Assembly: GCF_026571515.1 (NCBI RefSeq)
Contig: NW_026855732.1
Coordinates: 1 to 64,000, forward strand
DNA from: Ruditapes philippinarum
Lineage: Eukaryota
DNA length: 64,000 bases
Direction: 5' to 3'
In this document: positions 4,372 through 59,877 of the stretch, piece after piece
Layout of the letters: every line of letters begins with the position of its first letter
How positions within the stretch are numbered: position 1 is the first letter of the stretch
The notes under the pieces: generated by a model
Databases searched by the model: none
The model's input: the letters and a program-made list of their open reading frames with translations, nothing else
Told to the model about the DNA's origin: nothing
Position numbers and translations under genes: made by a program

Positions 4372-7300
4372 CTATTTATACACGTTTTTGTCACTTGTTC
4401 CGAAATACTGAGTCCATCTTTGTTTAATCATTGGAAGAAATGTTTTCTCATGCAGTGCCGAAGCTTTTACATCAGCATTATTCATTGAAGTTGTAGCTTT
4501 CACAGGGACCTGATGGAAGATGTTACCAAGCAACCCTTTTTCTAGATTCACTTTCTGTACAGTAAGCTCAGCAGACATTGCCTGCGGACAGTACTCGGCA
4601 TCGTACATCATGGTGATTGCTGAGGTTATACTGATATAATCAAGGTTACCATCGCCATCTACATCACCAATAATACCTGGTGCAAAAACAAGATGAAATG
4701 CTGAATTCCAAAATGACCTGTGATACACAGTGAAAATGTGATATCTGTAGAAATTCAACAACAAACTAGAGGATGCTTTTGTAAAAAAGCGCATGTCTCC
4801 CCCACTGCACTGTGACCTTGACCTTTGACCTACTGACCCCAAAAACAATAGGGATCATCTGCTCTATAAGACCAATCATCCTATGAAGTTTGAGGGCTGT
4901 AGGTCAAAAGGAACTCTAGTTATCATCCGGAAACGAGAAATTGACCAACGGTCACTGTGACCTTGACCTTTGACCTACTGACCCCAAAAACAATAGGGAT
5001 CATCTGCTCAATAAGACCAATCATCCTATGAAGTTTGAGGGCTGTAGGTCAAAAGGAACTCTAGTTATCATCCGGAAACGAGAAATTGACCAACGGTCAC
5101 TGTGACCTTGACCTTTGAACTACTGACCCCAAAAACAATAGGGATCATCTGCTCAATAAGACCAATCATCCTATGAAGTTTGAGGTCTGTAGGTCTAAAG
5201 GAACTCTAGTTATCATCCGGAAACGAGAAATTGACCAACGGTCAGTGTGACCTTGACCTTTGTCCTACTGACCCCAAAAACAATAGGGATCATCAGCTCT
5301 ATAAGACCAATCATCCTATGAAGTTTGAGGGCTGTAGGTCAAAAGGAACTCTAGTTATCATCCGGAAACGAGAAATTGACCAACGGTCACTGTGACCTTG
5401 ACCTTTGACCTACTGACCCCAAAAACAATAGGGATCATCTGCTCTATAAGACCAATCATCCTATGAAGTTTGAGGGCTGTAGGTCAAAAGGAACTCTAGT
5501 TATCATCCGGGAAACGAGAAATTGACCAACGGTCACTGTGACCTTGACCTTTGAACTACTGACCCCAAAAACAATAGGGATCATCAGCTCTATAAGACCA
5601 ATCATCCTATGAAGTTTGAGGGTTGTAGGTCAAAAGGAACTCTAGTTATCATCCGGAAACGAGAAATTGACCAACGGTCACTGTGACCTTGACCTTTGAA
5701 CTACTGACCCCAAAACAATAGGGATCATCTGCTCAATAAGACCAATCATCCTATGAAGTTTGAGGTCTGTAGGTCTAAAGGAACTCTAGTTATCATCCGG
5801 AAACGAGAAATTGACCAACGGTCAGTGTGACCTTGACCTTTGACCTACTGACCCCAAAAACAATAGGGATCATCAGCTCTATAAGACCAATCATCCTATG
5901 AAGTTTGAGGGCTGTAGGTCAAAAGGAACTCTAGTTATCGTCCGGAAACGAAGAATGGACGGACGGACGGACTGACTGACGGACGGACGGACTGACGGAC
6001 GGACGGACAGGGCAAAAACAATATGTCTCCCCCCGAGGTGGGGGAGACATAATTATTATTATTATGTCTGGTGAAATATACTGAAATTTAAAAATTACCT
6101 GCTAAAGAAGCTTGAAGTATAAACCTTATCTGTCTTGTAGAATGTGCAGATTAGACTGGACATTATTTTAGACAGGTGTTACAATGGTGGGGTGCATAAT
6201 TTCACTTGTTATAACATATAAACATATAAATAGAAATAAATAAAATTTAAAGCCTTATATCTAGGAAATATTTTAAAGTCAGTCAATCTAAATTTGACCC
6301 TTAACCTGCCGAATGTCTAAAATAGCACCAGTGTAAAAGGTAGATAATGTACATAATGTTTTCCTTTAAATATAACTATGATGGATATAATACCTGAGCT
6401 CATGCTGTCTGGATCTTCAACACTGCACATTGTCTTCTTCCCTTTCTTCTCCTCTCTCCTAGGTCTATGTGAGCCACTTTCTCTACCTGGTATATTATCT
6501 TCAGAGTCAGTATCTATAGATTTGTCGTCAGACTCGTGAGCAGAATCTACATACTTTTCTGTAGTACTAAATTCTGTGTTAGCATTATCGCCAGTAGTGT
6601 CATACATATTGTCCGTCTCAGAGATGTCTTTATTATCATAAAAATCATCTTCTGCATTATCATCAATATTGTCATTATTATCATCATCCATTTTATCATC
6701 AATATTATCATTATCATCATCATCCATTTCATCATCAATAAAATCATTATCATCATCCTTATTATCATTCATATTATCATTGATATCATCAATATTATCA
6801 TTATTATTATCCATATTGTTATTGATATGGTCATCATTGTGGTCATCAACATTGTCAATTTCTTCAGAATTTTCCTGCCACTCACCATCTTGAGCAGGAT
6901 GGTTGTTACCCTGATTATCCGGATTTCCTTCATGCTTGAATGGAGCACTATGCCCAGAAGGTGGCTTACTGCTACATGTTAGGGCAGCATCTGTAAAATA
7001 CAGATTCGAAGATAAACAAATGAATTTGTATTCTTTACTTTCACATCTCTATTCAGTAGTGCAGACATACGAACGGACTTACTTACAAAATGGTACTAAT
7101 GTGACTTTTCCTTTGATCTTTTTAGCCATTTTTAGTCACACAAGGCTTAATAAAAGACACACAAGTAAAAATGGAATGAATAGAATCAAAGAGAATTTAC
7201 TGTTACCCACTGTTCTCCAAGTCACACAAGTACCTCTGGGTTTGTAAGGACGTACAAAGCGGCGACTATATGCTCACCCTTTGGGGAGCATAAAAAGGCA

Positions 7301-21209: not shown

Positions 21210-22388
21210 CGTGGTGAATTAAACAGGGTGTTGTGATATTTAAAAACTCCTAAGTATCTAAATTCCCAAAATAAACAGCCCAGTATCCATGCTGATTTTA
21301 TTTAAGTGAGTTAAACTTTGTTTACAAGACTTGTTTAGATTTCCTTCTGATCAAATCGCTCACTTCCCGGTTGACCCAACAAGGGAGAAAACTGTGATTA
21401 CTGTACAGTAGGCTATCGAAAAATAGTTACATTGAAAACTGACGGTCGAGCTTTTATATTATCTTTTAGCCTATGTAGCAACTTTATTATATTCTGCTGA
21501 CTAGCTGGCTTTATACTGTGCTCAAATAAATTAGAAATAATAGCTGATTTATATTTTTTTTAAATTAATTGTAATGGTTAAAGGCCCATGCATGTCATTG
21601 GCCATTTCCCTATACTGTACCATCATTTGCTGACCTGCTAGTGTTATATGGCAATTAGTACCGTTATTATACTGATTTTTAATATTTTGTATCGAAGTCA
21701 AAATTCTACTTTGTTTACATTGTCAATACAAATGATTTTGCATTCTAGTACTACGTACTTTCTTCAGTTGATTAGCATCTAACATGTTCTAAAACCATTT
21801 CTAATAAATGTAAAACACATGTGTACCTTATCTTAGGAAGGAAAGAAATATTCGTTTCTGAGACATCATGTGCCTTTAATGTATTGAAAACAAAGTAAAT
21901 TAAAGATAAAAAAAGTAAGTAGCTTTAACGTTAAATTCCACATGCTTTTTTATTATGGGTGATTATTTTAAGCACAGAAAATTAAAAATCTACGTTACAA
22001 GCTTCAAATGTTTTGAATCGGAACAACAATTGTTCACTTAAGTATGATTTAGAAGAAGACCGATTGTTTTTGCTCCAATTATTAGTGGTATACATTTCAC
22101 TTGATATGCACTGTAGATTTATTTAAGTAGAAATATTTAAAAAAAGCTTTGTATTTCTGATATGCATATAACGATTTAAAAAGATATGGCCAAGGTCATT
22201 CCGCTTAAAAACAATTTATTTTTGCAGAGAAAATCGGTTTGCACTGTAGCCTTTGTTTCCTGTAAGACCTAAGGAAACATGGAATTTAACTTGGAATGTT
22301 TGATTGCATTACATAATTATATTATTAGTTATATTTTTTAATTTTTATACAAACTCGTCTAGATTTAGAACCAAAATTTAAGCATTAA

Positions 22389-22494
22389 GGTAGAACGCAA
22401 CACTTTGCGAACTTTTGAGTAGCGTCTTGAACAAAAATTGCCAATATTCAAGACGTGACGCTACTCGAAAGTTCGCAAAGTATCGCGTTCTACC
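22389..22494. mobile_element. Short fold-back MITE, TTAA-flanked (Kolobok-like)
   Basis: TTAA-GGTAGAACGC..ACTTTGCGAACTTTTGAGTAGCGTC ... GACGCTACTCGAAAGTTCGCAAAGT..GCGTTCTACC-TTAA; almost the whole element is one hairpin. Confidence 0.75.
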
Positions 22495-22623
22495 TTAATT
22501 TAAAAGTTGATACAAATCAAATTTTGTGGAAATGACCGAAAATTGGAAAGCGTTAAAACGCTTTTCACTCAAATCGGGCTTAGCCCACAAGTATGATTTT
22601 TAATCTATTTATTTTTAAATTTC

Positions 22624-23334
22624 TTTATCACACACCCGTGCCGATTTTGCGACTCCGTAAATATGGTATTGCACGGCCGTGCATATATTTTGACGTGACG
22701 TCATTAGCGTTATACAAACATAGTGTAAAGACGCGCTAAATGTTAGCGTTATATAGAGGATATTGAATGAGTGTAAGTTCAATACTGAATTTATTGCACG
22801 AGTTGAATAAAATTATATTATGCGAGCCTCTGGCGAGCATAATATTATTTTATTCAACGAGTGCAATAAATTCAGTAATGAACTTACACGAATTTAATAT
22901 TCTATTTATCACATACCCAAAATAAAGACCGTTTAAAGTGAAATAAGAGTCATTTTCCGTTGACGCGCCTACAGTAGAACGCTAACATAAAGCGCGTCTT
23001 TACACTATGTTTGCATAACGCTAATGACGTCACGTCAAAATATATGCACGGCCGTGCAATACCATATTTACGGAGTCGCAAAATCGGCACGGGTGTGTGA
23101 TAAACTATTAATAGGCGCGTCAATAAAAAACGACTCTTATTTCACTTTAAACGGTCTTGATTTTGAGTAAGTGATAATTAAATAGAATATTAAATTCGTG
23201 TAAGTTCATTACTGACTTTATTGCACTCGTTGAATAAAATAATATTAGACTCGCCAGAGGCTCGCATAATATAATTTTATTCAACTCGTGCAATAAATTC
23301 AGTATTGAACTTACACTCATTCAATATCCTCTAT
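22624..23334. mobile_element. Two nested, oppositely oriented copies of a palindromic repeat element (A-B-A'-B')
   Basis: A (22624-22750) is the reverse complement of A' (22978-23104); B (22753-22971) is the reverse complement of B' (23112-23334); B is itself palindromic around GCGAGCCTCTGGCGAGC; truncated B copy at 52373-52439. Confidence 0.8.
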
Positions 23335-25016
23335 TTATTATCATTTGCGTATCTTTCTGCATTAAGCGCTTTTAAAAGGTTATCCATGTCAGAAATTCAT
23401 TTTCTTTTTGCTTTTAGGCCTTTGGATCCTTTAAGCTCGGGTTTGAAGGAAGTATAATTTCTAGAATAAAATTCCGCAGCTTTAAATACATAATTTATTC
23501 TTTTATTCAAATTAGACAATTCAGTTAGTATTTCATAAATTTCAATAAATTTCTGTGATAAAAATATTTTACTCTGGGATGAGCATAGTATATCTTTAAG
23601 AGTGTAGCAGTAATTGCAAAGAATATCCATGCGTGGTCACACACGAACATTACCAATGATGATTTATTATTTTATTTTCATTCATTCGGTGTTCTAATGG
23701 TATTTATGTACAAATCTCAAGCTTTTTAGACTTATCATTTCAACATGAAACATATTCTGATAAGAATTCCACTAGATAAATCGTTTGTTTATTAAGTTGC
23801 CGCAGTATATATTTTGCACTTCTGCCAGCAATTTTCCCGGGCTATAGAACGAAGCTCTAAAATCAATACAGGCTGACGTCTTACAATACAGCATATTGTA
23901 TAATATGTCATGCATTATCGATACATATTTGTGATACTTCCTGTGCAATGAAAGTATTGGATATATCTAATTACAATTGTATTTTGTGTCTGTATATATC
24001 TAAAAGTATATGCAAAGCATAATAAAGGCATTTTGCTTGTATAGTGATCAATAAAGCAAAGTTTGGTGAGAAAAGAGAGCAAAACCGGGACAATATAAGC
24101 AGGTTTTTCGTTTTATTTGTTTACAAAATATGTACATTTTGAATAGTATTGATATTAAAATTTGTATGTGATAATTATAAGATAATTATTGGAATAATTA
24201 TGACTAGTCACTTCATTATTTGCGTAGTACTCGTGTATAGAATTTATATATGTTCACGTATCGATTTCTTTAAAAGCAGATGTGTAATAATCGTACAATT
24301 GAATTGATAATAATGAGATAATTTATTACATATATTACTTCTTTATTAAATACAATTAAGTTATTTACTCCTTTTATAAATGAATTATTCACCACTTATC
24401 GATTTTCAATTAATCATTCGGAAACGAATGAATAGAGATATGAAACTAAAATGACGTGTCTGTGGCGTGATTATATTAATAGAAGTCTCATATATTTCTC
24501 TTTCTTGAAATATCTACTTCGCAGAGGAGAAGCGTATAACACTGTAATGGAACTCTCAAGTCAGTTAGATAGGTAAATAGGTAGGAAGGTATAGTTGGGT
24601 ATTTATGTAGGGTAGAGTAGGTCGGTCGGTCGGTAGGTTCTTATGTTGAGTAGGGTAGGTATGTAAAGGTTCTGATCGTAGGGTGGTGAAAAGGTAGGGT
24701 TAGGGTAGGGACCGCTTTCAAAGACTGGATAAATATATATTAATTACTTTTTCAGGATACTCAGTTCTTCTAACTTTTAGTTTGTTCTTTTACTTACTAG
24801 TTAAAATATGAATGGTACAATATTTGTCTCATATATTATGTTAGCAGAACTGAAATGTTTGCGTTATTAATGTTGGTTAATATATAATTACTATTAAATA
24901 AATTCGTTTTTTTTGTTATAGATTTCAAAAATCCTAATATATGTTAATTACTTTTGAAACACTATTCCATTTTACTTTTGTAGGAAAGATTGTTAAGAAT
25001 CGTCGAAGACAAAAGT

Positions 25017-28000
25017 ATGTCTGGATACCATGCTAAGTTGGACGACAAAAGATTTACTAACTGGATAAAGACATGTATTGCCATCGATATATTTAGAGCA
25101 TATGTAGAGACTTTTGTTTACAAGGAAATAGAAAAGTTTCATTCAAGTATCCTTGAAACAATAGCAAATGAAAATAAAACGAAAAGTAATATTTATTGCT
25201 CCGAATGCAGAACTGCCAATGTATTGGATTGCAAAACGAATAACTTTTGCACCTTTAAGCATGGGAAATGTAGTAACCACTTTCCACCAGAACATACATC
25301 TCGTTCTTGCCCGAAAAACATCTGTAACCGTATCAAATATTTTATTCTAAAATGTCACGATTTTAATAGTCCTACATGGCAAAACACCAGTGCAGAGAAA
25401 TGGTGTTATAGTGCATGGGAGTTAGCAAAGTGTTATATGCCTAAAGGTGGGTATTTTGAAAAACAAAGTCCCGCCGAAACCGATTTAAATGGAATCATAA
25501 GCGTTATGTTGAACAACTCTAATATTTCAGGGACTATCGACAAATCAAATTGCGAAGAGGTAATTATCTTTTCTTTTTTCCTTTGAAGACTTTGCTAATT
25601 TCATTGAAAACATCACATCCAAAACTACATATATTACATGAAGGTTTGACACACACTACATTACAATATAGAAAACATGGGACTGACTTATTAATGACGC
25701 TAACTTTGCTTATTTGATACATTGAAAGCGTTGTCCTGTTAAATTATACCCGGCATCTAACAGCTGTTTATTCATAAGGAATATATTTAATTCTTAAGGT
25801 GACAACGGAGTCAATTATCACTGAAAATACCTTAAATGAGATTTTTTGCTTAGTAGATTTATCAACCTTTGCTGAACACATTCGTGATTTAATTTTGGAA
25901 GCAGTTAGTCCAAAAAATGTTTTTTAACGTTTTAAAACGGTACCTGTACCATTTTTATCCGCTATTCGCGTAACCTGTCAATTATCGATAACGCTCCGCC
26001 CCCTGTTGAGGCATCAATGAGGGAAATCGGTAGTTCCATATATGCGTGAATTACCGGTCCATACTGGTCCATACTACTCGTATTTGTTTAAATTCATGTA
26101 TCGTTACAAATACCGTACATCTTTTATGAATATCGTCTTTTATTTAGCCTTTTTTATAAAATAAGAAATTGTCGGCCAATGTACGTAACATAATGTATGA
26201 AACATGAATAATTAAGCATAGCGGCAAATCGCACGACCACGGGGTTGATTTAAAATATAGTTGCTAAAATATCCATAATGTGTGAAAATAATTTGTCTGT
26301 CCCGTTAATCTGATTGATATTACATTGAGTTTATGGACTTTTGTACGGATTCAAGGGCTTGCTTTACATTAATTTCAACCTCGTTTTTTAACACTGTCAA
26401 GTAAAACAGCAACAAAAACAGACAACATTTTTTATGTGAACGCCTATATGACTTGTGGTAAGGTGTCCCTGACAAATTTCTAAACCATTTTAGGTTGTCT
26501 AAGGATGATTATTTCTCCATGAATCAATAAAAAAAGATAATAAAATATATTATCAGTGAATGCTTTGAATAAATTGTTCCCCAGTAAATTGAACACAGTA
26601 CTAATAAACCTGGGACAAAGTATGGATTTTATTGTATATCCCAGTAGAAACTGGATATCTATGCCGTGCATAGATGATACGTGTATTCATGATAATAGAA
26701 GTCAAGAAGGTCAGATCATAATGATCGAGTGATACCTTTTATTTCTATTAAAATATGTGAAGCATTCATATCAATTTGGAGGAAAAAATATATAATATCC
26801 CGTTCTAATTTGAACATCTACCATGGACTTTAAAAGACCGTCAGAAGCTCAGGTTTTTGTTAATTTAATTTATATTTTAAAGGAATTTCATACACGAATA
26901 CACAGACAGAGTGACACTGGTATAATATAATAATAATGCTGATGATAATAATAATAAACTTCAAAAGTGAAACAATTAAATACCCCGCTAGCGGTGCGAA
27001 AATACGTTCCATTTCCCCCCACCGAGTGCCTCAAATTTTACCGAAAGTCACGTGACATGTGCGACAGATACCAGACGGACAATAAATCACATTAAGATTT
27101 GAAGAAATTTCTGTTATAAACTGATATTAATCAGCAAGTTTTTAATTGGTCAGATGTCACTTGGTCATAAAATGTTGTTAGAGTATGTTACCGCAACTTG
27201 TGACCCTCTCTGGTGCGATATTTGTGTATTATGCAATTATTTAGCGTGAAACGTAGGGGTCCGAGAGAGAGCAGCCGATTTATGACACTTCGTTTGATGC
27301 AGGTCGGACTAACTTTGAATCGGCATAACTTTTTTAATAATCAAGCAATTAACATGCGGTTTAAAGCACATGAAAGGGAATTCATTTACGGAGGGAACCG
27401 TGTCAGGGATTTTTGTTTGCTCAATCAGCGACTTAATTATCTTTAATTACGTAATATGTATGGTGAAAAAAGTCGCATAAAATGTTTGACGTTACGTAAT
27501 ATTTTTTTTGAGAAAAGATAGAAAAAATTTGAGACACGGTTCCCCAGATAATATAAATAAGGTTATTTTCCCAAAGTTTGATGACAAAAAAATAAAAAAT
27601 GACTTTGATATGACGATTTAAAATTTTAGGATTTTTATTCAAAATCAATCATTTACAAAGGCATTTTTTTCAAATATGTTATTTTTTGTGATGATCAACG
27701 ACATTTAATGCACAAAGATTAAATAAATAACAATTGTTACTAAAATAAGTTGGTTTAAATGACATTTATGTGAGTACCACGGAAAGTGTCTGTTGTCACC
27801 TTAACGAAACTTACAGATAAACTTTAATACCACTGCATGCGTTATGTTGGATTCTTTGGGACTAAAAAGTCTCCTTGACAACTGGTTGTTTGCTTTCTAT
27901 AAGAAGTACAATAGTACCAAGCGTTGTGATTAAAATATGGCGTTTCTAATAATTCAGAAAATTGCTATAGTATCGTTGGCCCGTAAAAATATTCTCCATA

Positions 28001-31000
28001 AAAGGCCGTTTTGTCATGCCTATACTTGTATATAGCGATTTTGAATTATGGCTATAAAACCTGTGCAATCTCAATCATTTTACACATTCTTTGTACAGTT
28101 TGTTAATTGTGATACTAATTGTGAATGTAGAATAATTAAATAAGCTATGCTTCCAGTGTATTGTTACATAAAAATCAAAATATCTGTTAAGTACAGTCCT
28201 CATCACATGATGCTTAGATTGGCCATTCAGATGTCAAAACCTTCCTGGCTTCCGTTGTTTCAACTTAGACAATATACATTACATATATATGTTGTACTTA
28301 TAGACATGTTGACCACTACAAGTATGGAGAGAAAGAAAAAGACAGAAGTTTATACAGTTGAAATACTTTATTATTTAAAATATCAGTCAACTGCAATAGA
28401 TGATTTATCAATATATATAAAGTGTTTGTTTTCCAGTTGATTATGTTATAATACTATATATATTATAAATATAAAGAATAAAAACATGTCATAATTTCAG
28501 ATACGTGGATATTGTAACTCACTTCGGCATACATCAAATTTTTATGTGGTTGACCAAAAGTTAGCTATGTTCCTCGACATGCTCGTTTCGTTTTTGGAAA
28601 ATTCACCAGCATTTCACAACGACAAGAAAGCTAAAGAAGCTATCAAAGAAATCAAGGAGGTAAGTCAAAATTTAATAAAGTTAGACACGTGAAGGTAAGG
28701 AGCGGTAGCCCGACGGGGAACATAGCAAACTCAAGGTTACAAAGCAATGTGAATTAAACTCTGAGATATATACAGTCATGATTCCCGTTGGGCGCCAAAT
28801 GTCACAGGGTGAGAAAAATTGTGCAGCCTTCATGACCTGGACTCAAACCCGGGGCCCTCGGAATACCGTTTCGCGGTTCTACCGACTGAGCTATCCAACC
28901 GTTACACACCTTCTCCGCTAAATATAAAATAGTTAACCGTGTTGCTTGCATTAGTGACAAAAGAGCTAATTATTACGACTGTCTTTATCTTGCAAGGTTA
29001 GAGCAGAGGAGTTTAAAATAACTGTTCCTGATGTCACACGAGTGATACAAAAATCAATCCAAGAAGAACGGATCCAGTGTTCTAAAGATATAGCTAAAGA
29101 ATCAAAAGATTACATAGAGGAATTGCAGAAACTAAGAAGTGAGATTGAAACCATTGCAACTAAAAGTATCAACGAAATCATTTCTGAAAAACACAAAGCC
29201 ATCGAAAAGATAACAAGTACAGCATCTTTACAAGTATCAGCTGGAAAAGACGAAATTGTAAAAGCTACAAAAGATGCACGTACTGAGATAGAATCTTTTG
29301 TGAAAGGAACTAATACACAACTAAGAGAACGTATGTTACTTTTCCATTCTGAACTACATTTAAAATAAACTATTTCATTCCGTACTATTGTTATATTATA
29401 CATTATTTGCGAATAAATTCGGTGTAGGAAATTTAAATATTAAGCTTTATAAACAAAAGTATTTTTGACATCTTGTATGCTTCGTAATTTAAGTTTATGT
29501 GTTTTTCTTTTGTCAATTCTCTAATTTTTTCTTTTCAGGGCTTAGAAAAGACCTTCTTGATTGGAACAAATCTAAACATAACGAAATCCCAATCACTCCG
29601 TTATTCGACGATACCGAAGTGCCAATCACAGACTTTTATGTCCGTCCGCAACTAGTTTCTGTTGAAAGACAAAGTTACGGATCGGTTTGGAAAAGAAATG
29701 AGAATACCCACCAATTCATTACGCGACGTTTTTTATAAACACGAAATAAGACATAATGAAATTTATCTTACATCAGATGCAGGATTTGGAAAATCTTCTT
29801 TAAGCAAATATTTAGTAATGGCATGGTGGTACGCTTTGACACCAGATTCTGACCCGTCGAGTCAGTATTTTTCCGAAGAAGATAAGAAGGTTATGGAAGT
29901 GTTTGACTATGCATTTCTGATCAACCTGCGTGAACTAGCTTATGAATGTGATGTTGACAAAATAATATTTAAACATATCATTTGCGATTTATCTCATTCT
30001 TCAGAATATTCTCTCTCATTTCTTCAAAATATTCTCCATGATGAAAACTGCTTGATAATTCTTGATGGTTTAGATGAATGGTCACATCCCACGGGTACAG
30101 AATGCAATAAAATGTGTGACGATATACCCCACAGGAAAGCAAGACAAGCATGTACAGTCGTGACCACTTCTAGGCCCTGGAAGCTTAGCGCAATAAAAGT
30201 CAGAACAAGTCAGATAGACAAACATGTTGAACTATGTGCACTTACCAAAGATCAAATAATCTGTCTCAAGAAAATGTCTGTAACAAAACTTATAGGTAGG
30301 AACGGTGAAATAAGCAACATAATCGAGGCATTAAATGCTGAAATTAAAGAAAGAGAACTAGAAAATCTTGAATCAAACCCAATGCTACTTATGTACTTAG
30401 TTTGTTTAAAAACTGAAGGGAAACCACTTGGAAAATCAAAATCTGAGCTTTACACACAGATCATTGAGCTTCTGCTGGTGCGTGCTATACAAAAAACAGA
30501 AAGAAATTCGAGCAATGATATGAATATTGAAAATTTGACAAAGGGTGATCTAGATCAAGAAAATATTCCCCTTTGTTTAAGAGAACACGAGTTACCTCTA
30601 CGATACTATCACCTTTTAAAGCAGCTTGGGCATTTGGCATTTACGACATTATTTGACGATTGCAAATCAAATACACTGGTATTTGATAAAAAGAAAGCCA
30701 GTGGTTGCTTGTCTAAAGATTTCTTACACGCGAGCCTTTTTTCCGGCATGTTGACGGAAAGTAAAATTATGGGTTCCTTATTGATAAAACAAAGTAATGT
30801 ATCATTTTGCCATAAGACCATTCAAGAGTATTTTGCTGCCATTTACATGCACATGACGCGAGATGAAGATTTTACTGTAAAAACAACGCTGAAATTTTGT
30901 AATTCGGTTAATCGCTTACTTGAAATGGAGAAAGTGTTTATCTTCTTGTGTGGCTGTAGCTATGAAACTTTTGAACGTTTCTTAAATGAGTTGTGGACAG

Positions 31001-32241
31001 TAGTGGAAACTGATAAAAGTGCTATAGAATACAGACACGGTTGTATAAGCAGTACTTCTAACTACAATATGAAAATAAAACCAATGAAAGATCTTCAATC
31101 AATGTATATCAGCTGTCTAAAAGAAATGGAAATGCAAAACGATGGGAGTAAAAGTCAAAACATTGGAAAATTAAAACTATATCTACATGACATATTTATT
31201 GACGAAGATTGCAAAGACAATAAATACATGTTATACTTGAAGAGTATGAAGGAAATGAATGAAGGTAAAATGAAATCATTTAGTATTAGAATTGAAGGCT
31301 TTTCAAATTTTGGTGATATTGAGGAGAAATTTCAACTCGAAAAGGAAACCTCTCTGGAAAAAATTAACTTTAGGGGAGAATGTTGCAGTAATGATATTCA
31401 AAAGTTGCTATGTAGTTCGGCAAATAGTTTAAAATGTGTAGAGATATTGTCAAGTATATGGACTGACAATAGATTTGTACCAACATACACCATATGGACT
31501 GATGCAATAACCAATACCTTTCAAAGGATGCATAACCTAGAAGCGCTGCATCTTTATGCTTTCCAAATGTCTCACACGCAGCTGAAGGAAATGATTTCTT
31601 TCATAGAACAGCATATTATAATGAAAGATATTGCAATTTTGAACCTAAAATGCGCCGATCACGACTTGTGTAGCGGCTGTCAACTGGATCTATCTGGACA
31701 TAGGAAATTGCGGCTATTGTCTATAGACAACTTACCGTTGTCCAAGCTTTCAATCAATGTGTCTGAACTAGAAGATTGTGTTCTTGGAAAGATTTCAAAT
31801 TCAAGCGTCCTGACATCATTCCTTACGGCATTGAAATCTGCAATTAGGGTGCAAGGCTTAACTTGCAGACATATAAGTTCCACGGATGAAATTGATAAAA
31901 TGATTGAAACAATAAGTTCTATGCCAAACCTCAGTTTTATACGATTGTTATATTCTGATCTCGGTGAAAGACAAGTCTTTTTGTCAAACAAAATGTCCTC
32001 TCTTCAGCTGGTACGCTTTGTTGAAGTTATTGTGAAATGTTGTGTACTGTGTGACATTGTAATGGTTATCAAATCATTTCCTAAGCCCGTTACCATTGAG
32101 TTATCAAAGTGTACTGTATATACTGAGACTGAATTTGATGCGTTTAAAACAGAAATTAAAAAAGATAGTAAGATTTTATTTGTACATGAAGGCAGTGGAT
32201 GTGAGTTAACATTTAAGACCTACGGAAATCAAAAGTTGTGA
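25017..32241 (+). CDS. NLR-like protein: CXorf38/DUF4559 HEPN-like domain, coiled coil, NACHT, LRR-like region; one frameshift (possible pseudogene or assembly error)
   Basis: Exons 25017-25559, 28501-28659, 28997-29330, 29539-32241 (GT-AG, phases 0/0/1). N-terminus NWIKTCIA..CPKNIC..H..PTWQNT..WELAKCYMP.GGY..TDLNGII..NSLRH; Walker A TSDAGFGKS, Walker B LIILDGLDE, VTTSRP, winged-helix FCHKTIQEYFAA, Leu-rich C-terminus. Exon total is 3739 nt, one nt off frame; the shift must lie in 29656-29735. Confidence 0.8.
25798..27800. mobile_element. Kolobok-like non-autonomous DNA transposon (~2.0 kb) in an NLR intron
   Basis: TTAA-GGTGACAACGGA ... TCTGTTGTCACC-TTAA: TIRs beginning GG with TTAA duplication; no long ORF. 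Confidence 0.7.
28786..28919 (-). mobile_element. tRNA-derived short LTR (28906-28800) with upstream purine tract and downstream tRNA-Lys PBS
   Basis: Minus strand: AGCGGAGAAGGTG | TGTAACGGTTGGA TAGCTCAGTCGG (A box) ... GGTTTGAGTCC (B box) ... CCCTGTGACA | TT TGGCGCCCAACG, matching the first 12 nt of the tRNA-Lys1,2 PBS. Confidence 0.7.
29662..32241 (+). CDS. NACHT-LRR portion of the NLR-like gene (terminal exon)
   Basis: Uninterrupted 859-aa ORF with NACHT P-loop, Walker B, WHD motif and degenerate LxxLxL repeats. Confidence 0.9.
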   Translation: MKDKVTDRFGKEMRIPTNSLRDVFYKHEIRHNEIYLTSDAGFGKSSLSKYLVMAWWYALTPDSDPSSQYFSEEDKKVMEVFDYAFLINLRELAYECDVDKIIFKHIICDLSHSSEYSLSFLQNILHDENCLIILDGLDEWSHPTGTECNKMCDDIPHRKARQACTVVTTSRPWKLSAIKVRTSQIDKHVELCALTKDQIICLKKMSVTKLIGRNGEISNIIEALNAEIKERELENLESNPMLLMYLVCLKTEGKPLGKSKSELYTQIIELLLVRAIQKTERNSSNDMNIENLTKGDLDQENIPLCLREHELPLRYYHLLKQLGHLAFTTLFDDCKSNTLVFDKKKASGCLSKDFLHASLFSGMLTESKIMGSLLIKQSNVSFCHKTIQEYFAAIYMHMTRDEDFTVKTTLKFCNSVNRLLEMEKVFIFLCGCSYETFERFLNELWTVVETDKSAIEYRHGCISSTSNYNMKIKPMKDLQSMYISCLKEMEMQNDGSKSQNIGKLKLYLHDIFIDEDCKDNKYMLYLKSMKEMNEGKMKSFSIRIEGFSNFGDIEEKFQLEKETSLEKINFRGECCSNDIQKLLCSSANSLKCVEILSSIWTDNRFVPTYTIWTDAITNTFQRMHNLEALHLYAFQMSHTQLKEMISFIEQHIIMKDIAILNLKCADHDLCSGCQLDLSGHRKLRLLSIDNLPLSKLSINVSELEDCVLGKISNSSVLTSFLTALKSAIRVQGLTCRHISSTDEIDKMIETISSMPNLSFIRLLYSDLGERQVFLSNKMSSLQLVRFVEVIVKCCVLCDIVMVIKSFPKPVTIELSKCTVYTETEFDAFKTEIKKDSKILFVHEGSGCELTFKTYGNQKL

Positions 32242-51120: not shown

Positions 51121-53759
51121 ATAATTCGATACCACAGCATCCAATATCATACATGATCATATGATTACTGATATTACTCGACGCTGGACTGTCTAATATT
51201 TACAGCTCTCTTCATATATATATTAGATCCTGATTCAACTTCAAAAGCAAAATACTTAAATATATCTATCATTCATTGAACAGAAAGAAATTTAGTCTCC
51301 TATTTTTATACATTTACTGTTTTTGATTTAAATGTATATTAAACAAAATGACCCTACCTAACAAGCGATTCAATATACTTAAACTATATATAATATAACC
51401 GCAGCTCCCTCGTATCATATATCCGTGCCTACCTTTGAATGCATAATAAGTTTGAATCAGTGTTTTTTTTAAATATAATCATTATAAAACAAAATGTGAC
51501 ATAATGCTGATCAAAACATTCCGTTAACTAAGCGTTTTTAATATCATTGTGCTTATGTTCACTGCAGAGTTTAATATTAAAATTTGTGTAGCAAATTTAT
51601 ATGTTACAAATCATTAGGTAAATTGCAATAAAAAAGCAATGGAAATTATGTAATCATTTCAATTTAATCTTAAATGGTTAGCCTAGACCGACAAATAGTT
51701 ATAATGTCTGCCTAAATGTCTTGAATACCATAATTTCCCAACGATTCTATGGTATTACAGGGACTTAGCAATATCTAACATCAAATCCAATCCAATAAAT
51801 ATCTCTACCATGGTATATATGCCATCAATGTATGATCTATATCGCTATATAGAAACGCCAATGGGACGTTTCATAAAACATACAATAAGAACTGAATGCT
51901 AATACTTTACTTACTACACACGAATGTAATATTTACTTATTTAACACTTTATATGCACATTGTTTCAGAGTTTAGGTTACTAGCTATGTATTTGTAGTTA
52001 CATTTGCTTAGAGAATTCTGGATAATTATGAAGAATATCTTAATGTAGCGTGCTTTATCTCTTTAGGTATGCTTGTTTACGGGTTTTGTCTAAGTAAATA
52101 TTATATGCGTTAGATATTTTTGTCTCTAGCATTAGTAATAGATATGTATCAATATTGACTTTCATGAAAAACTTTAGAAAAAAAGGAGACAAAAACACTA
52201 CTATACTGGAATCAGTGATCACAATTGACCACACAAATTTACATCGCTTAAGTGAAGTGAGGGGCAACCATTTTAAAAGCCACCATACGGCACAAATCAG
52301 TCACATTTGTATTATCGTTTTCTTGTCTGCTTTCCTCATTCGGACAATTTATACACTCTTACTTGATATAAGTAGAGGATACTGAATGTACTAAATTTAT
52401 TGAACGAGATGAATAAAATCATATTATGCGAGCCTCTGGTTTTATTACACTCCTACGCCATAGTTTATGTAATAAGAATAATGACATAACTTTTTTTTTT
52501 TTTTTTAATTTCAGCAACATAGTTGCTCATTTATTTTCCCCGTCCATGTGGAAAGTGGGGTCGGGGAACCATCCACCACTTCCACTTACAATATGATACA
52601 TCTATCCCAGTATATTATGAACATACAAAGTTATATTATATGATAATAGTGTTTTCAACATAACAACAGAACTATAAAAAAAAGCCATACATATTCATAC
52701 AGTATATAATGTTGAAATGAAAAAAAAAATGTTCCATGGGGGCAGATTTATATAGTGTTTAAAGATGGGGGGTTTTTATGTTTAAAAAAAAAAATATGTT
52801 TCACAAATCTTAAAAAAACATTTTCTAGCCAAAGCTAACTGCCATGTTTTGTATGTTATATTATTTTGATTGTACATAATTCACATATTTAGTGTATATA
52901 TTCAATGCTAAATGTATAACAAGTTCACAGACAAAAACTGCAGCTTAATATAATAAAGCAATTTTAATTGTAGTGAGCACAGGTACCTGTAACAACACTC
53001 ATCTCCAATGCTCTATATTTGCTATATACTACAGTCTTATCACAGCATATTGCCCATATAGAGCACGGTGAAGACAGTCCTGCCTCAAGTACATGTGGTA
53101 GTGAGTAAGTAAACAATCTTTCTAGTATGCTTAGGAGCGTTGTCTCCCTTAAATCACTGATATATTTATGTTTCAGATGAAATATAATGGTAATGCCTAA
53201 TTGCTAGAAAAAAACAACGACTTTTAAATGTTAATATGAACAAGTTCTTTCATCATGTAAGTTCTAAAAAAAAAAAAATTATTTTTTTTCACTGCTTTAA
53301 AATACTTCAAGTCTAACCTAGACAGGTGAATTGTACACTTTTCATAGTCAAAGACTAAACTTATAACACTTATTACAAAATGTGTGTATACAAATTTATG
53401 TACATAAATAATACACAAATTATCAGAATATAAATACAAATGTAGACAGAAAGCTTTATGTATGAATTGATTCATAAAAAAAATAGATATGTAAAAGGTT
53501 TCTGGTGTAAACTACTAGAGTTTCCTTCTTAATGAAAAATGATAAATAAAAACAATTGAAAATAAGAATCAGAAAGGATGTGAATAAGGCGACGGAAGAC
53601 CACATCATAATGGTAGTGGGTGAGAGTTAAGAAAACTGTTTTTTTTTTTTCGTTTTTTTTTGCTTTGCATATAGTTATGTTAAATAGAAATTTCATAAAA
53701 ACCTTTCAAGTATAGTACATGGATATAATATTCCCTATTGGGATTCAACTGGAAGAATC

Positions 53760-56700
53760 AGACTAAAATTTTTGCCATGACCTTTCGAAATTTTCATACC
53801 TGACCGTTTGTTTTGCAACACATTTTTCAATGTTTATAATTGGCTATTATTTGTGACTTAAAAATTTCCAGTCCAGGCCTTATTTTTTTCATTTTACTAT
53901 AATATATAAATTGCTTTGCCCATAATATTATCTTATTTATAACAATATCTAATTTTGTATTACCAAAATAATATATCTATAGTAGTCCAATCATTAAAAT
54001 TCAGATTACATTTATTTATTATATAAGACTGAAGTTGCCGCCAAAATTGTTTAATTATTTCACAGTCATTGAACAAATGGATCAAAGTTTCTGGCTGACT
54101 TTGGCAAAAAGTACAAGCATCTTCATTAGTAAGATTCATTTTTTTCATCAAGTGATTTTTGTTCCTAGTATTCTATGGTTAATCCTAAATTGGAACCAAG
54201 TTATTTTGGGGTCTTTAGTAAATTTATAACTCATATCATATATTGAATTCCTTTAAAAAAATCCTGGGTCTGTGATATCTCTTAATTCATCTTGCCATTT
54301 TTGTAAAGAACTAGGAAAATGACCTGCATCTTGCATTGCTTTATAGATTGATTTACACCCTTTTTTATCCTTAATTATTAGTGCTAGAGTTTGTGGAATA
54401 TGTGTATAGAAGCTAAGTTTTTTTAATAAATGTTGCATATTATTTACTTCAAGGAATTCATTTACAGCTGTTAACATACCTCTATATTCCAAAAAGTTGC
54501 TTCCTTATATTATAAGTTTCCAAAAAATTCAGTATATGTGTAAAAATCTCCATTTTGATTTAAAAGATCACCTAAAAAACAGAACCCCTTTAGAGATCCA
54601 TCTATTAATACAAACACTTGAATTTCCAACTTTAATTCCTGGGTTAAGCCATAAATGAACTGAAAAACACTGTTTACTATTTTCTGGTTTTACATTTAGA
54701 GATAAAACATAATAGCTATATAGAACATCTTTCCAGAATGGATTAATATCTAAATGTAGTTTTGTTTTTATATAATCTGAGCCATATTTGGAGATATGGT
54801 TTACATATGGACATATACTATCTACTAAAAAACTAAATTTGTTATTTTAAATTGGACAGCCTTCGTATCCATGTTACTTTTAGACTATTACTAAATTTTT
54901 TTAAATCTACCATTTTCAACCCTCCAAACTTGTAGTCTTTGGTAATAATATTCCTTTTGACTTTATCTACAGAATTATTCCATATAAATTTGAAGAAAAG
55001 GTTCTGTATGGTGGTAATTTTGTCCAAGGGTGGATTTGGTAAACTCAAAATAAATGATTTAACTTTGCAAGAGCAAGGGATTTTACAACAACCAGTTTTC
55101 CTATTGGAGAAAGGACTCTTTTAGACCAGTTCGCAAATAATCTCTTGATTTCTTCAATTTTTTAAGTCAAAATTTAAATCTATAATTTCAGATAAATCTG
55201 TAGTAAATTTAACACCTAGAACTGTAAAGATTTTTTTCGTTCCATGACAGATTATACTCTGGACAAAGAATAACATTACTGTTTTTTTCCGATCCAAACC
55301 AGATAACTTTTGTTTTATCTACATTAATATTAAGGCCTGAGATCTCTAGCATAAAAATTTTAATGTTAACATTGTGTTCTTAAGAGATTTTTTTGTACCA
55401 TCTAAAAACAAACTAGTGTCATCCGCATATTGGGATATCTTGTATTCTTTTCCACAGATTTTTATACCTTTTATATTTTTATTGTTTCTTATCATGATTG
55501 AAAGAAATTTCAGCACATAGAATGAAAAGGTAAGGCGACAGAGCATCTCCTTGACGACAGCCTCTCTGTAGTAAGAACCATTCAGACATATGTCCATTTT
55601 ACAATCACACATGATTCAATATTGGTATAAAACAATTTAATCCAGGTTTTTAATAGAATTGCCAAAATTGAAAAAGTCTAAAACTTGGTACATAAAGTTC
55701 CAGGAGACAGTATCAAATGCCGCTGCAAAGTCAATTAAAAGTAATAAACCAGGCATATTATTTTTTTCTGTATTAAAAAGCAGATCATATAACATTCTTA
55801 TATTTGATGCCATTAGTCTACCTGGTAAGAATCCAGTTTGGTCTTCATTTATAATATTAACTAATACATTTTTAATACGAAAAGCGATTGAGGCAGAGGC
55901 TACCTTATAAGCAACATTTAATAAAGAAATAGGTCTCCAATTTTTTAAGTAAAGTTTATCTTTATTACCTTTGGGTATACAGGTTATGTCTCCCTGTTTT
56001 TGAGTAATTGATAATTCTCCAATTGAGTGAGCATAATTAATTGACCTTACTAAAAATGTGCCAATATCATTCCAGAAAAATTTGAAAAATTCTACTGTAA
56101 AACCATCATTTCCAGGACTAGTATTATTAGACATGCGCTTTTAAAGAATTTAACATTTCGGTGTATGTCAGAGCTCTCCTCAATGGATTGCTTATCAATT
56201 TCTGTTAGTTTTCGGAACATTAAAATCACTCAGTGTTTCAGTTAAAGATATATTTTCAGTTTCTTTCACTTTATATAAATTTTCATAGTGTTGTTTTGTT
56301 TCAGTAAGAATTTCATCTTGTGTTTTTTAAAATATCACCTTTTTTTTGAGATTAAGTGTTCATAAACTTTGAAACATAATTTCTATTTTCGAGATTACAA
56401 AAGTAACGGGTAGTTTTTCTCCTTCATGTATCCATTTAGCTTTTGATCGAATGAAAATGCCATCCATTTTTTTTTCTTAAATCAGCAAGCTGTCTTCTTT
56501 TACTTTCTAACAGTTCATAATTTATATTTTTGTTTTTTTTCAAATATTTCGATTTCTTTTAAAAGTTTATCTTCTTTATTAATTTCTGTTTTTTTCTTAT
56601 GTGAAGCATAACTAATTGTTTTCCCTCTAATATTTAATAGCAAGGTCTCAAAAAAATAACTGATCATTAACATTAAATCTTATTTCTTGAAGGGGTATAT

Positions 56701-57545
56701 TATCTATATCTGATACATCTAATGAATACTGTAGTTTTGTTTCCGGTAATAATATTTTTCACTTCATTTATGTATTTTTCATCTCTTAAGAGGGAATTAT
56801 TAAATTTCCAGTAAGACCGCCCCTTTTTTAAATTTACCAAATTCTAGTGACATTAAAATAAGTGAATGATTCTGTAACGATACCCAGGTAAAATTAAAGT
56901 TTTGTCAATATCGGTATATAAAGTATCTGAAATTAGGGAAAAAGTCAAGGCGTGCTTTTTTCTTTGGATTTTGTCTAAACCACGTATATTCCCTTTTTTC
57001 CAAGTTATTTTCTCTCCAGCAATCCATTAGGTTAAACTCTGACATTAAACTGTGTAGCTTATCACGTGCATTTGGATTGTTTAAGTGTAAGTAATTAAAA
57101 CAATCTATATCTGGATTAAGTACCATGTTTAAATCTCCAGCAAGAATATATAAAGTATTATTGAATTGTGACATTTTCTCTGAAACCATCTCATAAAAAT
57201 TTGGGTTGTCTCTATTTGGTCCATAAATATTTAATAGAGTGATATCTTTATCGCATATTTTACAGTTCAGAATAAGCAAATTACCTTCATTATCCTTCTC
57301 GATATTATTTACTTTACAATCAAAATTATTGCAACACCCCGAGATTGACTATTGAAATAAGAAAAGTAGGTATCATATCCCCATATGGACCGTATATACT
57401 TTTCTTCCTTATTTGTGAAATGAGTGTCTTGTAACATACATATTGAGTACTTTTTACTTTTTAAGAAATTAATAACATCTCTACGTTTAGCTCTGTCGCC
57501 TAGGCATTGAACATTCATAGAAATCACTGACACATTATTTGTCAT
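53760..57545 (-). pseudogene. LINE ORF2 (APE endonuclease - reverse transcriptase - zf-RVT), multiply frameshifted
   Basis: Fragments: ISMNVQCL..LQDTH..SRGVAI, NIYGPN, AGDLN, ARLDFF (APE); SPGNDG, KNWRPISLLN, DFAAAFD, QYADDT (RT); GGLKMVD; CTFCQSQPETLIHLFNDC (Zn finger). 3' end approximate. Confidence 0.9.
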
Positions 57546-58517
57546 GGCTATCTAAATCATGAAAAAATTGTCTAAAAACATGTGAAAAAGAAAATATAAT
57601 TGTCTGATATTTTATGAGAACAGGTAAAACTTCTTGATAGATATATAGAGTATTTAAATAAAAACCTTTAAAAATGTAGGGTCTCACCCAAAAACTTAAT
57701 GGGTCATCCACCAAAAACCTTATATTATCCATTAGTTTGTAATTTTTATATGAATCGATCGGCATGTTGAAGAAGAGGGCTTTAAATTAAATTTAAGCTG
57801 TAATATATTCTCCATTTCACTAGGGGGCAGTAAATGTGCCTATTCATATATAAAAGGATTGTGCTTTTACAAAAAAAAAGAGTGAAAAAGTTTATAAATA
57901 TAATGTAGGAAACATATATATACTGTATGTGTTATACCATTTCCAGGTATTTTCAATAAGTTTATATAACAACAATACAAATACCAGTACATAGAGTATA
58001 ACTTTACATTCCAAAAAGAAAATAAACAGTAAAAAGTAAACAACATACTCATTGATTTACTGTGTTTTGACCATTTTCCCTGTGCCTCTGCCCATTCACA
58101 TTAGATTCATATCTTACACAGTTCACGTTTCACTGAAAAAAATAAGAACCAGACCACAAAGAACCGCTTTCAAAACGTAATCATACTACTTTTTTTTCTA
58201 TTATCTGGGATTAAAATAACTTAGTTTTAATGTATCCCAGTAATTATAAATATATACATGTACCGAAACGGCGAAAGGACGAACTGACTCATCAAAACAA
58301 ATATACGAAAGAACATCAAATCTACTTTTAAACTTTATAAAGAAAACATTTCTACGTGTGTTTTTCAATTAAGAGGTTTGCATTTTACTTAAGTTTTCAT
58401 ACCGTAATATCTCCCAGCTTTGGTGTTGTGAACAACAGTTTATAATTCTTGACAGGTAAAATTTGGCATGGGTGCAGCCATTTTATCAGGTGGCGCTGTT
58501 TGCGCACTGCGCATCAG

Positions 58518-58691
58518 CCAATCACAGTATAGTAAGTGAAATTACCCAACAGGCTCAGTATAAAAATAAACACTACCACGTGCTTACGCACGTGTTTAAT
58601 GTAAACAATCCAATCACGGTATCGAAAGTGAAATTACCCAAGAGGGGCCGTATACAAGTAAACACTACCGCACATGTTTAATGTAAACAAT
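58518..58691 (+). repeat. Two-copy ~85-bp tandem duplication in the LINE inter-ORF spacer
   Basis: CCAATCAC.GTAT...AAGTGAAATTACCCAA.AGG...GTATA.AA.TAAACACTACC...TGTTTAATGTAAACAAT occurs twice. Confidence 0.85.
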
Positions 58692-58956
58692 ATTTTAATA
58701 GAAACAATTAATGTTCACGTATTCTTCCTAGGGTAAAGAGGCACAGTAAAGCATAGTTTGATAGTAATTCATGTTTGATAGAAAGTCAAAAAATAAATTT
58801 AAACAAAAAATAGTTAACAGTATATATATCTATATATGAAAACTACACAATTTTGAACATTTTCCCAACAAAATATTAGTCAAATAAATGTAAACATTAG
58901 TGCTATATCTATCAGTCTATGTATGAATAGTTACCAAACCACACAAAGTCACTTAA

Positions 58957-59877
58957 TTAAGATTCCGTGCTTGGTATCACAGTTCCTGAGGACCCGACGG
59001 GCACTTTATCCAGATCACTTAGACGAGATACCACTAGTTTTTTATTGTTTTTCAGTAATGCCACGATTCTGCCTTCATCGCTCCAGGCAGCCTTTACCTG
59101 ATCGTGTGCGGAGGTGTTTTCCAGAAGTTTTGCGTTGACCCGTGTGAGGTCTTCTCTTATGACGATGAACGAACCCTTAAGTTGTCTGCGAGCTTTCAAT
59201 ACTTCATGTTTGAGATATCTCTGTACAAACTTACATATGATGGGCCTGTTCCCATCACTACGGAACTTCCCGATCCTATGTGTGATGTCAAAGTCTCCAT
59301 TTCCGACTTTTATATGTAGCTTATCGGAAATAATTGAAATTACCTTCTTACATGTGTCCTTGTAGTTTTCACTGACATCGTCTGCAACTCCGTAAATTCT
59401 GACGCTGTTACATCGCGTATACTGTTCTAGATGATTGTTCTTTTCTTCCAATGATTTAACTTTAACTTCCCTTTCATCTATTTGCTCTTGAAGCGTTTTG
59501 TTTTTATGTAGTAACTGATGGTTTCCTTCCTGCAGTTGATCGGTTTTTACTTCTAAATCTGATACTTTATTTCTCAGAGTTTCTACTACATCTTCTATTG
59601 ACTTAACCCTATCACTTACTACCTTCACTTCTTTATGTATATTATCTAGTTCCTTCTGCACTTGGAGTTTAATTACTTTTTCTAGGTCTTTGAGCTTCTT
59701 ACCAAGCAGATCCTCAGTAATCATTAATTTAAATTTTGATTCAATGTATTCTTGTGATGCCAAACTATCTAATTTATCAGAGACACTCTTCAATATATGC
59801 TTCAACTCATCAGGATTTGCATTAAATATCAAATGTTTATCAAGGGTGGGCTGGGTAGAAGCCTCGCTTGGTTTACA
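58957..59877 (-). CDS. LINE ORF1 (coiled coil + L1-type RRM/CTD), N-terminally truncated
   Basis: Coiled coil, LEQYTRCNSVRIYGV, HRIGK..RPIICKF, IREDLT motifs. The frame stays open upstream of 59832 up to the TSD with no ATG. Confidence 0.85.
   Translation of the reverse strand, partial: CKPSEASTQPTLDKHLIFNANPDELKHILKSVSDKLDSLASQEYIESKFKLMITEDLLGKKLKDLEKVIKLQVQKELDNIHKEVKVVSDRVKSIEDVVETLRNKVSDLEVKTDQLQEGNHQLLHKNKTLQEQIDEREVKVKSLEEKNNHLEQYTRCNSVRIYGVADDVSENYKDTCKKVISIISDKLHIKVGNGDFDITHRIGKFRSDGNRPIICKFVQRYLKHEVLKARRQLKGSFIVIREDLTRVNAKLLENTSAHDQVKAAWSDEGRIVALLKNNKKLVVSRLSDLDKVPVGSSGTVIPSTES

Follow-up and report, generated by a model that had tools for sequence, protein, structure and literature searches.

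Helenus elements (TRIMp3) are TRIMs with tRNA-derived LTRs, whereas those of Ajax elements derive from 5S RNA (Kojima 2024, PMC10886601); the first-pass annotation of the DNA described here had the two names swapped. Animal Helenus insertions have 4-bp TSDs and show an excess of LTRs, for example 235:46 for Helenus-3_CGi (Table S3, PMC10886601). Transcription of Helenus by Pol III and its mobilization in trans by Gypsy elements are proposals, unvalidated in PMC10886601. The molluscan families reported there come only from Pteriomorphia, and Venerida, Mercenaria and Ruditapes do not occur in its text or supplement; the host considered here, by contrast, is a heterodont-type clam.

The locus lies in a 64,000-nucleotide stretch of Ruditapes philippinarum DNA (the window, to which coordinates refer unless another locus is named). 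It is a decayed inside-out fragment of an abundant Helenus-type TRIM, and sits antisense within a 337-bp intron of a NACHT gene. Its features, and those of the host gene around it, are as follows.

28660..28996, plus strand: host intron, GTAAGT...TTGCAAG, 337 bp, in a NACHT-domain gene; the frame is open across the joined exons
28907..28925, minus strand: 3' end of the internal domain with the polypurine tract; 5' edge somewhere within 28924-28932
28919-28907, minus strand: purine tract (PPT), directly before TGTAAC
28800..28906, minus strand: LTR, tRNA-derived, TG...CA, 107 bp; TGTAAC at 28906, GTGACA ending at 28800
28882..28893, minus strand: Pol III box A, TAGCT...CGG, which fits the Helenus form TRGCY/YGG (PMC10886601, section 3.5)
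28839..28849, minus strand: Pol III box B, conserved C changed to T at 28845
28786..28797, minus strand: PBS TGGCGCCCAACG, tRNA-Lys, 12 nt; two T between the LTR end and the PBS
28730..28785, minus strand: 5' part of the internal domain; 3' edge 28736-28730, just before the position of the pre-PPT hairpin
29656..32241, plus strand: large host-gene exon, NACHT and NLRC4-type HD2 (Pfam)

All of the minus-strand motifs named in the first-pass annotation (the purine tract, the 107-bp TGTAAC...GTGACA unit, the two boxes and the PBS after 2 nt) are where it placed them. Its assignment of the PBS to tRNA-Lys holds: the 12-mer occurs once in the window, against a chance expectation of 0.02 at no more than one mismatch (2 of 100 shuffles), and is the same as the PBS of oyster Helenus. 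The purine tract by itself is weak evidence, as four similar sites of tract plus TGT occur in the window. The description of the unit as tRNA-like stands for boxes A and B and fails beyond them: ARAGORN calls no gene in the LTR unit, a search of Rfam up to E = 5 yields no tRNA, and we found no cloverleaf there, folding being no better than that of shuffles (z = +1.3 to +1.6).

The repeat-derived stretch runs from ~28925 to ~28736-28730 (~195 bp) and takes in, past the PBS, ~50 nt of the internal domain. It contains no open reading frame of 100 amino acids and, like Helenus, is non-coding and shorter than 1,000 bp. The copy keeps ~19-26 nt of the 3' end of the internal domain, with at least 5-6 nt upstream of the purine tract, and ~64-70 nt of its 5' part; the missing segment of ~18-26 nt is a stem-loop, and a motif search did not find this hairpin elsewhere in the host intron. 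Self-BLAST of 27000-31000 found no second LTR, in agreement with the first-pass annotation. Instead of two LTRs around one internal domain there is thus a single LTR, and we class the copy as a fragment rather than an intact element. Its LTR edges abut the PPT and the PBS, with no 4-bp TSD of the Helenus kind at those edges, and a TSD search at the outer edges of the copy returned chance-level 4-mers only and none of 5-7 nt.

The intron at 28660-28996 has GT-AG ends and is predicted to be spliced. The gene around it, at 24984-32241 on the plus strand, appears to consist of a DUF4559-like N-terminal exon, a coiled-coil-like exon, NACHT and HD2; in the large exon, Pfam finds NACHT at E = 4e-08, above the cut-off, and HD2 at E = 5e-06, below the cut-off. 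From these domains we predict an immune-type, NLR-like gene. A GC-rich, SNP-rich, single-copy stretch of 45 nt (28686-28730) adjoins the 3' edge of the fragment. X3 record 24, one of the contigs used below, fits the downstream exon (28991-29133, 8 differences), but the 177 nt next to that match differ from the intron, which may reflect another haplotype or a paralogous gene copy.

The window is AT-rich eukaryotic DNA and holds other recognizable features. A ZIP transporter has named relatives, among 25 matches, in Mercenaria (71%, covering 78% of the length) and in Mactra, Ruditapes and Dreissena, which makes a heterodont clam the most likely host. Nested long inverted repeats at 22384-23337 (arms of 159, 130, 81, 69 and 43 bp, up to 97% complementary) look like a fold-back or MITE-like composite, with a related piece at 52389-52439. 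On the minus strand, 55637-59901 is a decayed LINE with an ORF1-like frame of 314 amino acids and fragments of an endonuclease-like domain and a reverse transcriptase (Pfam RVT_1). At 4663-6012 a 145-bp tandem array (eight 290-nt matches that overlap) gives way to a GGAC/TGAC microsatellite; we take this array to resemble the core of bivalve non-autonomous Helitron-type repeats.

We aligned contigs from 4 of the 24 listed runs (X1, X3, X5 and X10, from four studies) to 28400-29150 at 80% likeness, and report the best 15 of 26 joints, the best 24 of 555 loose ends and the best 32 of 4,279 pieces. Flank depth is flat and low in the four runs (5.6, 85, 17 and 16), and contig depth rises to ~2,000-6,400 times the flanks over box A and ~500-1,900 times over the internal-domain bin 28738-28763, rough factors that do not give a copy number. 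A very abundant repeat thus spans ~28730-28925 and is longer than the proposed unit, which had ended at the PBS. Because the DNA on either side of it is single-copy in depth, we reject the suggestion that the unit is cargo of another element.

Several properties of these contigs define the family. Among the loose ends listed, a G/A-rich tract followed by TGTAA precedes the LTR start in 44, 77, 58 and 57 contigs (X1, X3, X5 and X10, respectively); this consensus, recurring in 44-77 contigs per run, confirms the purine tract as the PPT of the family, as first proposed from the single copy, and the LTR start as real. The same loose ends reject the idea, taken from the LTR start of Helenus-3_CGi, that the tract lies inside the LTR. 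Compared by eye with the family consensus before the LTR, the window copy has five changes and one gap in 30 nt, LTR start included. In family copies the internal domain follows the PBS; among the ends listed, its loose ends fall at 28784 and 28736, and pieces stop at 28730-28731. Past 28736, other copies continue for at least 30 nt through the stem-loop (9 contigs in X1 and 27 in X5 among the loose ends listed). On the other side, multi-copy pieces stop at 28924 (X1 record 6 and X3 record 23 among the pieces listed); these two records have a PPT and an LTR followed by more than 440 nt of non-PBS DNA, as 3' LTRs would.

Joints that go back from 28876-28895 to 28730-28736, which is the canonical internal-to-LTR order, occur among the listed joints in all four runs. 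The ratio of LTR to internal depth is 2.5-4.1 at box A, 2.4-3.6 at box B and 2.0-2.8 at the LTR end; such ratios vary with the alignability of each part and are not copy numbers, but a fixed single-LTR unit would give ~1, so the inside-out order is not the fixed form of the family. From these data we infer a parent family with an LTR of ~107 bp, an internal domain of ~105-110 bp and a total length of ~325 bp. Its two-LTR form is a reconstruction based on the joints and loose ends, with no two-LTR contig of the host species among the pieces listed. Boxes A and B lie in the LTR, the PBS behind it and the PPT before it, and the family shows every Helenus feature examined that could be assessed.

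The window copy itself is no assembly artefact, because one contig of run X10 (record 13) covers 28744-29034 with 12 other letters and one gap, and the copy is present in other individuals. By a 31-letter criterion, two of the four runs (X5 and X10) bridge the left junction and the other two (X1 and X3) the right; X5 and X10 reach 23-25 nt past 28736. About half of the aligned contigs are less than 90% alike to the copy, and at 28845, where the copy has T, the conserved C of box B makes up 71-90% of the contig depth in the four runs; on both grounds the copy is old. None of the 15 listed joints (of 26) represents an empty allele of the intron, and the gap in coverage of X1 and X3 at 28946-28990 is no evidence for one. 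Without an empty allele, the insertion ends and any target duplication are not fixed, and the position of each edge has a margin of 6-8 nt.

Very probably, then, the copy is a one-off relic of a canonical Helenus-type family. Integrase joins LTR edges to the target, and the ends of this copy lie inside the internal domain; hence it arrived, or was shaped, in some other way. The first-pass annotation was right to explain the local inside-out order by either a tandem junction or a one-LTR circle: an I-LTR-I order has two sources, a tandem array and a one-LTR circle that was opened within its internal domain. Our tentative preference, close to an even call and if anything on the low side, is for a single integrase-free capture of a one-LTR circle. 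The parent family would most likely be transcribed by Pol III from its LTR boxes and, by analogy with Helenus, would use tRNA-Lys-CTT as its primer and depend on a Gypsy partner for copying and integration in trans. A one-LTR circle could arise as a by-product of reverse transcription or through the LTR-LTR recombination that leaves solo LTRs; broken in the internal domain with the loss of ~18-26 nt, including the conserved pre-PPT hairpin, it would have been patched into the intron by end-joining and would then have decayed. The circle route is favoured because the kept internal parts do not overlap and sum to one unit minus a small gap, and because the 337-bp intron holds no remains of an outer LTR. 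Most of the circles formed by active LTR retrotransposons in Drosophila are of the one-LTR type (PMC12951756; bioRxiv 10.1101/2022.09.25.509424); that they rarely re-integrate (PMC12951756) counts against this route. They consist of one LTR plus internal sequence, and opening in the internal part gives the order of the window copy, although the circles described there belong to autonomous Drosophila elements.

It is also quite possible, although we lean against it, that a tandem array (LTR-I-LTR-I-LTR) was the source: either an array inserted here and its outer parts were deleted, or break repair copied ~190 bp out of the middle of an array located elsewhere. TRIM arrays are common in bivalves and plants and produce the same junction; they are on record for zebrafish Helenus LTR-11_DR (PMC10886601), for biv-TRIM (PMC6934838), for Cassandra (PMC7215508) and in 129 plant TRIM subfamilies (PMC4717578). 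The copy is old, and about one random case in four (22-26% of draws with independent breakpoints) gives a length of one unit minus a gap. Such an origin needs either a templated patch or two independent deletions by which every remnant of the outer LTRs was lost from a short intron, and it has to place both ends of the copy at the edges of one 18-nt hairpin, for which the chance is ~1%, a figure that overstates the case because the windows were set after seeing the data. Unlikely, in our judgement, is an aberrant linear cDNA, with a plus strand that started near the PPT, crossed the LTR and PBS, stalled at the hairpin after the second strand transfer and was inserted without integrase. Tf1 and HIV-1 cDNA can keep the PPT and PBS at their ends and insert in this manner (PMC11042837), and the 3' end of the copy halts right before the hairpin; yet at least 5-6 nt of internal domain lie upstream of the purine tract, beyond what a PPT primer gives, and the integrase-free insertions on record mostly form tandems at existing copies.

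The proposal that the PPT-LTR-PBS module is itself mobile and multiplies in its permuted form, whether as cargo or by some route without integrase, fares worse, and we consider it very unlikely. In its favour, the local order is genuine and recurs in another individual (X10 record 13), and short contigs cannot count other copies with the same order. Against this, the LTR-to-internal depth at box A is 2.5-4.1 rather than ~1, the canonical internal-to-LTR joints recur, copies occur in which PPT and LTR lead into non-PBS DNA, most copies run through the hairpin that the window copy has lost, the flanks are single-copy, and the box B of the window copy is changed. That the locus is a tRNA-derived SINE or a tRNA pseudogene with chance LTR-like flanks is barely credible. 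It does have A and B boxes, and bivalve introns are rich in tRNA-derived SINEs (PMC11481361); the family, however, extends upstream of the tRNA head to the TG and PPT and downstream through the CA into the PBS, with no A-rich or tandem tail and no tRNA call or fold. The conservation of PPT and PBS among copies refutes this reading, which the first-pass annotation had called a misannotation.

Many bivalve Helenus internal domains, inspected by eye in Data S1 of PMC10886601, carry a stem of 6-8 bp with a mostly purine loop of 4 nt, ~10-20 nt before the PPT. By eye, the stem arms differ between families yet pair, and the hairpin is also present in the clam-family loose ends at 28736 and in a metagenomic relative described below; the word 'hairpin' is absent from the text of PMC10886601. 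This conserved pre-PPT stem-loop may be a new feature and is a candidate packaging or partner-recognition signal. A Gypsy partner may recognize Helenus RNA by it; PMC10886601 describes the means of that recognition as unknown. We also entertain, as a speculation that is improbable, that one-LTR circles are cut at the hairpin and re-enter without integrase, forming an inside-out sub-population with shared ends; the hairpin would then be both packaging signal and fragile site, and the intron copy a fossil of that route. An inside-out copy matters only if it is recurrent.

Patterns specific to the family gave no matches in metagenome contigs or in viral contigs. A broad pattern of box B, ACA and PBS gave 45, 26 and 1 loci in three scans, and 1 of these 72 (L028, from a marine metagenome) resembles the element; the other loci look like bacterial tRNAs or chance. 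L028 is a relative with two LTRs, 76% alike over 70 nt (E = 1.5e-5); it shares the PBS and the LTR end, a perfect 7-bp stem precedes its PPT (837-854), and we rejected its reading as a tRNA gene. In its segment 597-1066, an inverted copy of the 5' half of the LTR lies behind a Helenus-like element with two LTRs, and CATG stands at either end of this composite, which would fit the integration of an aberrant fold-back cDNA. Six AT-richer, eukaryote-like metagenome contigs (L019, L040, L002, L020, L029 and L042) have motifs that resemble boxes A and B, with ACA and TGGCGCCCA behind them. The L019, L040 and L002 loci showed no second LTR, and these contigs are probably SINEs with a chance match. 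The open-access papers searched, including the supplement of PMC11481361, yielded neither Helenus in heterodont clams, nor permuted single-LTR insertions, nor the pre-PPT stem-loop.

Among other small elements, biv-TRIM (Satovic et al. 2019, PMC6934838) is likewise a small bivalve TRIM, found in venerid and other clams and in forms that include solo, truncated, rearranged and tandem ones; in a venerid clam its arrays reach 58 repeats, and 96% of loci hold less than one copy. It differs in its repeats of 202-218 bp, its internal domain of 77-80 bp, its lack of a canonical PBS and the lack, in that account, of a reported tRNA-derived LTR. We rejected identity with biv-TRIM because the clam unit has a 107-bp LTR and a canonical PBS. 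Cassandra and Ajax also have a Pol III promoter within the LTR, but one that is 5S-derived (PMC7215508 and PMC10886601); their hosts are plants or nemerteans, and the Ajax TSD is 5 bp. Cassandra arrays show I-LTR-I junctions (PMC7215508), the arrangement of the window copy.

The closest likeness is to oyster Helenus-3 and Helenus-4, with which the clam family shares a tRNA-derived LTR with A and B boxes, TG...CA ends, an excess of LTRs over internal parts, and an internal domain of ~100-120 bp that closes with a stem-loop and PPT. By eye, Helenus-3_CGi, Helenus-3_CVi and Helenus-4_SaGl share with it the LTR ending CCTGTGACA and the TT spacer, and an identical 12-nt Lys-CTT PBS occurs in the clam copy, in these three elements and in Gypsy-125_CGi (Fig. 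S2C, PMC10886601). The clam LTR is shorter, at 107 bp versus 139-140 bp in oyster Helenus, and nearer to the 104 bp of Helenus-2_TeGr; the window copy departs further from Helenus in its single LTR, its lack of a TSD at the LTR edges and of the hairpin, and its changed box B. For annotation, a clam repeat of very high depth would be mislabelled as a SINE or pseudo-tRNA. Helenus outside Pteriomorphia, in a heterodont clam, may be new, although the kind itself is known; unless already in Repbase or Dfam, it would point to a bivalve lineage that goes back to the split of Pteriomorphia and heterodonts, or to transfer. In other respects the family looks ordinary, and only the origin of the window copy is a small puzzle.
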